A DNA stretch of 64,000 nucleotides from Amphiscolops sp. MND2022 (taxonomy: Eukaryota), in NCBI GenBank assembly GCA_964187785.1, contig OZ076410.1, forward strand, positions 99,200,001 to 99,264,000. The letters are read 5' to 3'. The notes below the pieces were generated by a model. It saw only the letters and a program-made list of their open reading frames with translations, was not told the DNA's origin and searched no databases. Numbering within the stretch: the first letter of the stretch is position 1; each line of letters opens with the position of its first letter. Shown here in pieces: positions 15,184 through 16,874 of this stretch. The position numbers and the translations under genes are program-made.

Positions 15184-15195
15184 CTCCTGTCACCA
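15184..15195 (-). other. Primer-binding site TGGTGACAGGAG of element A, inside the gag ORF
   Basis: Begins immediately after the LTR-terminal CA. The same 12-mer follows the element B 5' LTR. One mismatch to the complement of the vertebrate tRNA-Leu(CAG) 3' end (from memory). Confidence 0.85.
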
Positions 15196-16874
15196 TGTGA
15201 TAATCCTCTTCTAGGCTTTCTGCGTTAGATTCTTCATCTGATTGTATAGTTACATCTACACCTGATTCACTTCGAAACAAAGGTTTTGCAGGATGTTTGA
15301 GATCTTTCATTTTAGATGCCCTAAGAGGATAATCGTCATTTTCAGAATCTGAGTTTTCAATGTTAGATGCGCGAACTCCTATAGACGTGTTTACTCCGGA
15401 TAACGATGGTCGTGATTCCTGTATTTCATTCGCATCAGATCTTGGATTTGTTGTTATTGATGCGCTTTTATTGCATTTTATCTCTTTCAAAATAGCTTCT
15501 AACTTATTATCCATTCCTTCTCTCATTTTCTCTATCCTTTCTGTATTTTTCCGTTCAACGATCTGAGTCCAAACTTGTATCTCATCACTAATTTGACTGG
15601 GTTCTCTTAGTTGGTTTTCAAGGTTCGGTTCACTTAGATTTTCTTGGACAGTTAAATTAGAATTAGTTAAAGTTATATTACCTGTTTCTGAAGAATCAAC
15701 TCTAGTTTCGCTCACTTCTCTCTCAGGAGATGGGGTTGCTAGTCGCCTTGATCTTCGACTTCTTTTATTTCCCATTTCACCTAGCAGAAAACGAGTTATG
15801 TTTGCTGGGGAAGAATTTGAATTATGTTCTCAGTATGGAAAAATCCAAACTTTGGAAAACAATGAAAACTGATGGTATTTGCAAGAGTCTGGAGAAATTG
15901 ATACAACTGCACTTCAGGAGGGTTATTTCAATTGTGTCTTTTTTACAAAATCCTTATTTTCCAAAATATAAAACAATGACAATCATTTTTGCAAGCATCA
16001 TAGAGTCCTGGAAAGTCTAAGAATAGGATAACGTCAGATTGCGTAATTCTATTTATATCATCTCCGTAATGATGTAAATGCATCTAATCATCCTTAAAAC
16101 CCTAGGAAAATGCTGCAAAAAGATATATTAAACATCTCAAATGCTATCAGATACAGTATAATTGCATGACATTCAAAAACTGCACATTTAACTGAAAACC
16201 GCATAACTCCGCATATACGTCAGCCACGAAACCGTAGGGTGACGCATAACACACGTGAACATTTTCCTCACGTTCAAGTAGTAATGTATATACAGCACAA
16301 TACGATCCGCATGATATTTGCTAGAAAACGTATGTTAACGTATAATCGTCACTGCGAGAACCGCATAGTGACGTATGTTATGAATGGTGAAATGGTATGT
16401 TACCGCATACACTACTGATTCAAAACGTATTTTGTCGCATATCCAAAAGCGCATAATGACGCATACTTGAAAACCATTTCACGCATAATGATGTATATTC
16501 GTAAGGCCATTTCATGTATGATGACGCATCCTTACTAGTTGGAAAATGTCTAATGACGCATATTCGCAGTTCTAATTGTAGCATGATTACGCATAATGTG
16601 GAATCAGAAGTCACAGATTGATCTTGCTTATGTAGTTTTTAAGCACATGTTACTTTTATGAATGAAATTCTGATGAATTTGACATCACTGAAGGGTTCGG
16701 AAAATATCCTAGAATGAAATTCATCAATGGGGAGAAACAAATAATCAGCATCATAATATAAAAATACCATCAACATGAGAATTAATCGGAGTTTAAAATG
16801 TTTTGTTATCAGATCTTTCAGGTGTTCCTTTCACTGTTGCACAACGGAACCATCGCACCTTGAGGGATGCGACA
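15196..16874 (-). repeat. 5' LTR of element A (1679 bp)
   Basis: Direct repeat of 291-1961. TATAAATA on the minus strand at 16050-16057. CGCATA/TGACG motif cluster at about 16200-16600. Confidence 0.96.

Follow-up and report, generated by a model that had tools for sequence, protein, structure and literature searches.

A Ty3/Gypsy lineage whose gag begins deep inside the LTR and reads through a tRNA-Leu primer site

Introduction

The U5 region of canonical Ty3/Gypsy retrotransposons is usually non-coding. Some Cer elements of the BEL/Pao group may have ORFs that overlap the LTR, for which we found no confirmation in the open literature searched. As far as the accessible parts of the sources go, canonical Ty3/Gypsy elements usually have their LTR separated by a small gap from the primer site, or PBS (PMC4139406), and usually carry an AATAAA in the LTR (PMC3601003). 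The closest described systems are Ty1 and Tca5. According to the available text on Ty1, the 5' UTR is 53 nt long and the PBS lies at nt 95-104, so that about 41 nt of gag precede the PBS (PMC5454406); Ty1 also makes a truncated Gag from a subgenomic RNA, as stated in the accessible portions of PMC4551931 and PMC5408680. In Tca5 of Candida albicans, a Ty5-like copia element, the LTR measures 685 bp and the ORF begins 382 bp in, which leaves about 300 nt to the LTR end, and the available part of the account gives the start as unresolved (PMC4139406). An earlier note on the DNA described here knew only of the short LTR-coded stretch of Ty1 and overlooked Tca5.

Here, we analyse a stretch of 64,000 nt from Amphiscolops sp. 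MND2022 (the window), which holds two large elements, A on the minus strand and B on the plus strand. The 18S gene of this host appears highly divergent and may be akin to that of acoel flatworms. In both, gag starts hundreds of nucleotides inside the LTR and runs in frame through the primer site. This is confirmed throughout the lineage, one large Ty3/Gypsy radiation with thousands of copies. A Gypsy lineage with such a layout is not reported in the open literature that we searched.

Results

Both elements have paired TG...CA LTRs, 5-bp TSDs and, beside the 5' LTR, a PBS complementary to a tRNA 3' end, as Ty3/Gypsy elements (Metaviridae) do. The 5' LTR of A (15196..16874, minus strand, 1,679 bp, TSD GTCGT) is 98.8% identical to its 3' LTR (291..1961, minus strand), and the 5' LTR of B (27913..30377, plus strand, 2,465 bp, TSD GTCTG) is 93.1% identical to its 3' LTR (58515..60974, plus strand). 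After the primer site of A comes the remainder of gag (14083..15195, minus strand) with capsid domains and zinc knuckles, for which the Pfam matches Retrotrans_gag, Ty3_capsid and zf-CCHC are all weak and under the curated cut-offs. The pol of A (9247..14052, minus strand) matches, in this order, gag-asp_proteas (weak and below its cut-off), RVT_1, RT_RNaseH, Integrase_H2C2 and rve. This is the Gypsy order PR-RT-RH-IN and not the Ty1/copia order PR-IN-RT-RH, and A and B are thus Ty3/Gypsy elements; the Atlas matches are generic Gypsy-type RT clusters. The window copies of both are broken farther downstream. In A, the gag frame is broken near 14450-14478 and pol has a stop at 12748-12750. The tract before the 3' LTR (1962-1975 in A, 58500-58514 in B, and in L102-L119) is a short run rich in G, with examples such as GGGAC, GGCCC and GGGGAG, and in many cases its last bases are pyrimidines, unlike a classic PPT.

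The window has several further features. Between pol and the 3' LTR of A lie ORFs antisense to the element (4896-8793, plus strand). The first has a CxxC...H...H finger and no Pfam match, and the Atlas neighbours of an antisense ORF score at most 0.94 and include zf-C2H2_12/BED-type clusters. Homologues are found in antisense in five of ten other elements and the second ORF is also present in B; the antisense ORFs are probably an extra gene throughout the lineage. A sense ORF directly precedes the 3' LTR in A (2955-1918, minus strand) and in B (57837-58463, plus strand). In A it crosses the PPT and ends about 40 nt into the LTR, and 3/10 other elements have homologues. A motif V/L-V/I-D-I-S-S-acidic, which we take to resemble a SUMO-interacting motif, is common to this ORF in A, B and two other elements. 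B also contains, at 38821-58226, a tandem array of 5.2-kb units, which include partial LTRs, and of 1.64-kb units. The two partial LTR copies (41854-43978 and 47077-49215, plus strand) are cut about 60 nt after the ATG; we rejected splicing as their source, given that the joint keeps the GTAA and shows a short microhomology. A short inverted duplication lies at 46690-46871 and, between A and B, a diverged tandem repeat with a period of about 185 nt occupies 24273-25459.

The earlier note had placed the start of gag 400-580 nt inside the LTR, and this holds. With the LTR ends set by the paired LTRs and the 5-bp TSDs, the ATG of A (15775) lies 580 nt before the LTR end at 15196, and that of B (29981) lies 397 nt before its own. 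The LTR-coded head of Gag thus takes 193 codons and 1 nt in A (15196..15775, minus strand) and 132 codons and 1 nt in B (29981..30377, plus strand). The PBS of A (15184..15195, minus strand, 12 nt) follows the LTR with a spacer of 0, and that of B (30378..30390, plus strand, 13 nt) is likewise in frame. As had been noticed, the terminal A of the LTR and the TG of the PBS give ATG-GTG-ACA-GGA in the gag frame of both elements, so that the primer site reads (M)VTG. The 3' LTR of A has the same ATG at 870, and its open frame extends 11 codons into the flanking DNA. In B, the stops said to be private to one LTR are indeed so: the TAG at 30092 is found only in the 5' LTR and the TAA at 60869 only in the 3' LTR, where the ATG is at 60578.

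The layout is widespread in the genome (1.07 Gb): a count of the 12-mer at the junction gives 8,002 occurrences, and that of a control gives 15. Among the 30 best genomic hits of each element, 23 copies of the A family and 26 of the B family bear the junction, and in 19 and 22 of these, respectively, the LTR frame continues open into gag. We also took 70 of the first 71 junctions among the matches listed on contig C1, in positional order and unselected for frame. The 100 codons upstream of the junction are open in the gag frame in 51 of these (not in the other 19) and never in either of the other frames; a count of stops over these codons gives 86 for gag and 481 and 784 for the two alternative frames. 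Given the family counts and the stop counts by frame, this is far more than chance. The 70 junctions represent many families, with dissimilar heads of 103-216 codons. In ten further elements we compared the second LTR, and the match stops exactly at the CA before the PBS in all ten, with a TSD readable in nine; the RTs of these elements are 66-84% identical to that of A (9/10 matched). The elements are very large: LTRs range from 1.2 to >2.5 kb, and 11.3-14.7 kb separate the PBS from the 3' LTR in 9/10 (L101-L120).

The layout is probably found in another host too. P0138 has best matches of 38-49% in this genome among 102 of 13,025 candidates scored, and a metagenome contig (L182) holds an 89% relative of it. 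This relative has the same junction, 129 codons, a leader free of ATGs, a TATA box some 200 nt upstream and a putative LTR end. It is because of this shared TATA box, clean leader, codon run and junction that we regard the extension as probable. P0125 lacks MVTG, and its best matches in G000 reach 50-62%. We found no outgroup with the PBS upstream of gag among 20 examined loci, 19 of which carry MVTG. In P0127, P0138, P0183 and L182:8380-8440, the junction motif H/D-M-V-T-G is present as degenerate in-frame tandem repeats, which look like a duplicated att-PBS segment and may hint at how the primer site moved.

The LTR frame is under purifying selection, as judged from codon comparisons. Pairwise dN/dS is 0.13-0.37 in the LTR-coded part in 19 of 19 pairs, which were hand-picked from the 48/90 loci with open frames, are non-independent and were analysed with kappa fixed. 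In the 200 codons after the PBS, 16 pairs have values of 0.01-0.36. The remaining three reach 0.8-1.05; of these, two are near-identical there and one has a deleted gag. These values and the C1 sample bear out the view that the frame is kept across copies. Indel lengths are multiples of three in 24/58 cases in the LTR frame vs 50/191 upstream, a comparison that we leave out of the argument, since the copies were chosen for open frames and the distant alignments are noisy. The head of A has a basic N-terminus, a low-complexity linker and one probable helix. The basic patch in the N-terminus that the earlier note called NLS-like is real: the heads of most families have a basic tip, with 2-7 K/R in the first 15 residues, though it does no more than resemble an NLS. 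A heptad pattern is significant (at most 2/200 shuffles) in 3/11 heads and not in A (27/200 shuffles). The head fits an ordinary N-terminal region of Gag that would have been taken into the LTR when the primer site moved downstream.

The primer site is both coding and matched to a host tRNA. In A 12 nt and in B 13 nt of it are complementary to the tRNA-Leu 3' end, CCA included. The pattern of this tRNA 3' end has 857 matches in the genome, and ARAGORN finds a tRNA-Leu at 3/10 pattern loci (two CAG, one AAG). At G000:C8:35.58-35.64 Mb, such 3'-end matches form a dense tandem array, mostly about 296 nt apart, and at L137 the primer site matches tRNA-Leu over about 18 nt while the upstream frame is closed. 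The earlier note saw a PBS under dual constraint. This is right in that both constraints exist, but they are lopsided: what the peptide reads is set by the att end and by pairing with the tRNA. The LTR ends in CA and the primer site begins with TGG without a spacer, so the junction always spells ATG. In the +1 frame across the PBS a stop (TGG-TGA) follows after one codon in all 30 loci examined; this closes the third frame and leaves two that an ORF through the PBS can use, the ATG frame among them. The junction Met is therefore best described as largely a by-product of CA|TGG, an internal residue apparently forced by the att-CA and the primer TGG.

This bears on the proposal of a long and a short Gag, the latter starting with MVTG at the junction through an internal promoter or shunting and acting perhaps as a restriction factor like p22 of Ty1. 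The motif is found in 118 of the 120 best protein homologues, the +4 base is always G, junctions number in the thousands, and Ty1 sets the precedent of a truncated Gag (PMC4551931 and PMC5408680, in their accessible portions). Yet, the Met is fully accounted for by the att-CA and the tRNA complementarity, which explains its constancy without any initiation. A ribosome would meet 1-22 ATGs (median 10) from the first ATG to the junction, the -3 base is a purine in only 61/98 copies and a pyrimidine in 37/98, and just 3/40 TATA matches lie within the LTR frame. The short isoform is thus unsupported, and we hold it to be unlikely.

A single long Gag requires RNA that starts upstream of the LTR ATG, and several signs suggest that it does. 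We considered 40 copies with a recognisable start, picked by N-terminal patterns of our own writing. They have 40 matches to TATAWAWR between -700 and the junction, of which 35 are found at a distance of 100-300 nt before the ATG. A GGAC/GGAG motif often follows this box by about 30 nt. The MNPD/E, MVNT, MVIT and MSVE families show no TATAWAWR up to 400 nt from the start. In the 110 nt that immediately precede the start there are 4 ATGs (0.09/100 nt) vs 376 (2.35/100 nt) in a 400-nt stretch farther up, which are raw counts for a leader that is pyrimidine-rich. In B, TATATATA at 29818 and GGGACTC 28 nt behind it (29818..29852, plus strand) form a putative promoter, and the RNA is predicted to begin some 130 nt before the ATG, near the breakpoints of the B family (-493 to -539).

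The case of A is less simple. Its candidate promoter TATAAATA (16050..16057, minus strand) lies 282 nt before the gag ATG and at -862 from the LTR end, and the A family has its TATA box at -275 to -286 in 23 of 24 open-frame copies. The motif GACACAATTG (15929..15938, minus strand, -743 from the LTR end) sits at the recombination hot spot of the family and is similar to a motif that sister families have about 30 nt behind the TATA box, which makes it a candidate RNA start or R end. The TATA box, with a start near -830, and the hot spot at -745 disagree on the start. Both candidates lie upstream of the ATG at -580, so the start would do so in either case. An upstream ORF of 15 codons with three in-frame ATGs (15954..16001, minus strand), between the TATA box and the -745 point, would be within the leader only if transcription starts near -830. 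The gag ATG thus sits very probably inside R-U5, as the TATA boxes, the ATG-poor leader and the breakpoints suggest, and the strong-stop DNA would then be 500-830 nt long, which agrees with the unusually long R-U5 that the earlier note proposed. No conserved poly(A) signal or AATAAA was seen in the LTRs of the examined copies. A search for poly(A)-tailed genomic copies near the predicted R end of B gave 0 matches, which has no weight either way.

Some pairs of copies are mosaics in exactly this region. L051/L055 and L056/L057 differ by about 20% only from -499 to -12, and L084/L088 diverge only from -648 to -11; in each case the flanking sequence on either side differs by a few per cent. We located 652 change points across 425 pairs, which overlap heavily, are non-independent and are dominated by the A family. 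Of these points, 128 are no more than 50 nt away from the PBS, and 112 belong to the hot spot of the A family at -750 to -701. As the available part of one account has it, minus strong-stop DNA copies R-U5 and then jumps (PMC7175516); what a jump onto another RNA would swap is precisely the stretch that begins with the RNA and ends at the PBS. The mosaics might instead result from gene conversion after insertion or from ordinary copy-choice, in which case the coding LTR would be real, there would be no cassette exchange and the breakpoints would tell nothing about R-U5. Conserved sequence beside the PBS and the promoter could attract crossovers, and the A family has many breakpoints elsewhere, within the LTR frame (-314, -359, -107) and within gag (+227). 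However, in five families the breakpoints at the PBS edge coincide with the site nearest to the PBS that still varies, and whole young subfamilies share the swapped form, as in L053, L055, L058 and L060, which show 0-3 differences per 100 nt in all bins but one. We therefore regard conversion or copy-choice as the less probable source of the mosaics, though one to be taken seriously, and exchange at strand transfer as the probable one.

The same data speak to whether the LTR frame belongs to gag at all. MMTV sag and HIV nef are models for a separate gene of U3 type, which here would be expressed from the 3' LTR or from a spliced RNA, its fusion to gag being incidental. The frame is present and open in 3' LTRs, and donor-like GTAAGT (B) and GTAATA (A) lie downstream of the ATG. 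But the frame lacks its own stop codon, all families examined have it in phase with gag, the promoter signs are upstream of it, and it recombines as a block, apart from U3 and from the internal sequence; the truncations near the donor-like site of B are microhomology joints. A gene of this type is very improbable, and we take the LTR frame as the head of Gag.

Discussion

We consider it likely, with good confidence, that these elements make one long Gag from a start within the LTR, prime with tRNA-Leu in mid-gag, carry the head on strong-stop DNA and exchange it as a cassette; this is the best explanation of what we observe. The RNA would begin within the LTR, some 90-250 nt before the gag ATG. 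Ribosomes would scan a leader poor in ATGs and make a single long Gag, with R-U5 coding for its basic, partly helical head and the sequence after the PBS for its capsid. tRNA-Leu would prime 310-650 nt inside gag. The strong-stop DNA, with the entire head, would jump to the 3' end, leaving the head duplicated in both LTRs. A jump onto a relative that is packaged alongside would exchange the head as a cassette, with the RNA start and the PBS as its limits. One may go further and suggest that a Gypsy lineage in more than one host moved its primer site into gag, and that a head of 100-215 residues has since ridden on the strong-stop DNA and been reassorted between subfamilies at the first strand transfer. 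The arguments for and against this wider proposal seem to us evenly balanced.

By these results, the LTR of a Gypsy element can no longer be assumed to be non-coding. An annotation of gag that begins after the PBS would miss between a fifth and a third of the protein and take the junction Met for its start. The families form a natural series (103-216 LTR-coded codons) that ties together the lengths of U5 and strong-stop DNA and a protein domain, and their protein mosaics allow strand-transfer recombination to be traced. If the proposed mechanism is correct, the shuffling of a protein domain is built into the replication cycle. Each 3' or solo LTR would then be a promoter with a clean leader and a stop-less open head aimed at host DNA, and thousands of them are a possible source of chimeric host proteins.

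How do these elements compare with known systems? They resemble Ty1 of Saccharomyces cerevisiae (Ty1/copia, Pseudoviridae) in the start of gag within the LTR and in a PBS that lies within the coding frame. They differ from it in domain order and primer, Ty1 having the copia order and tRNAiMet where these elements have the Gypsy order and tRNA-Leu, and in the length of gag before the PBS, 310-650 nt here against the short stretch derived above from the available Ty1 text. In depth, the closest precedent is Tca5. To judge by the accessible part of its description (PMC4139406), it is a low-copy copia element for which no evidence of selection or exchange is given, whereas here a Gypsy radiation of thousands of copies reaches up to twice its depth and provides evidence of both. 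With canonical Ty3/Gypsy elements they share TG...CA LTRs, 5-bp TSDs, a gag followed by PR-RT-RH-IN and a PBS for a tRNA 3' end. They depart from these in having no gap between LTR and PBS, no conserved AATAAA that we could see, a predicted coding R-U5, a length of 14-19 kb and a probable extra antisense gene. The lineage is thus a member of Ty3/Gypsy with a layout like that of Ty1 and Tca5, from which it differs by its depth, its scale, the demonstrated selection on the LTR frame and an apparent exchange of cassettes.
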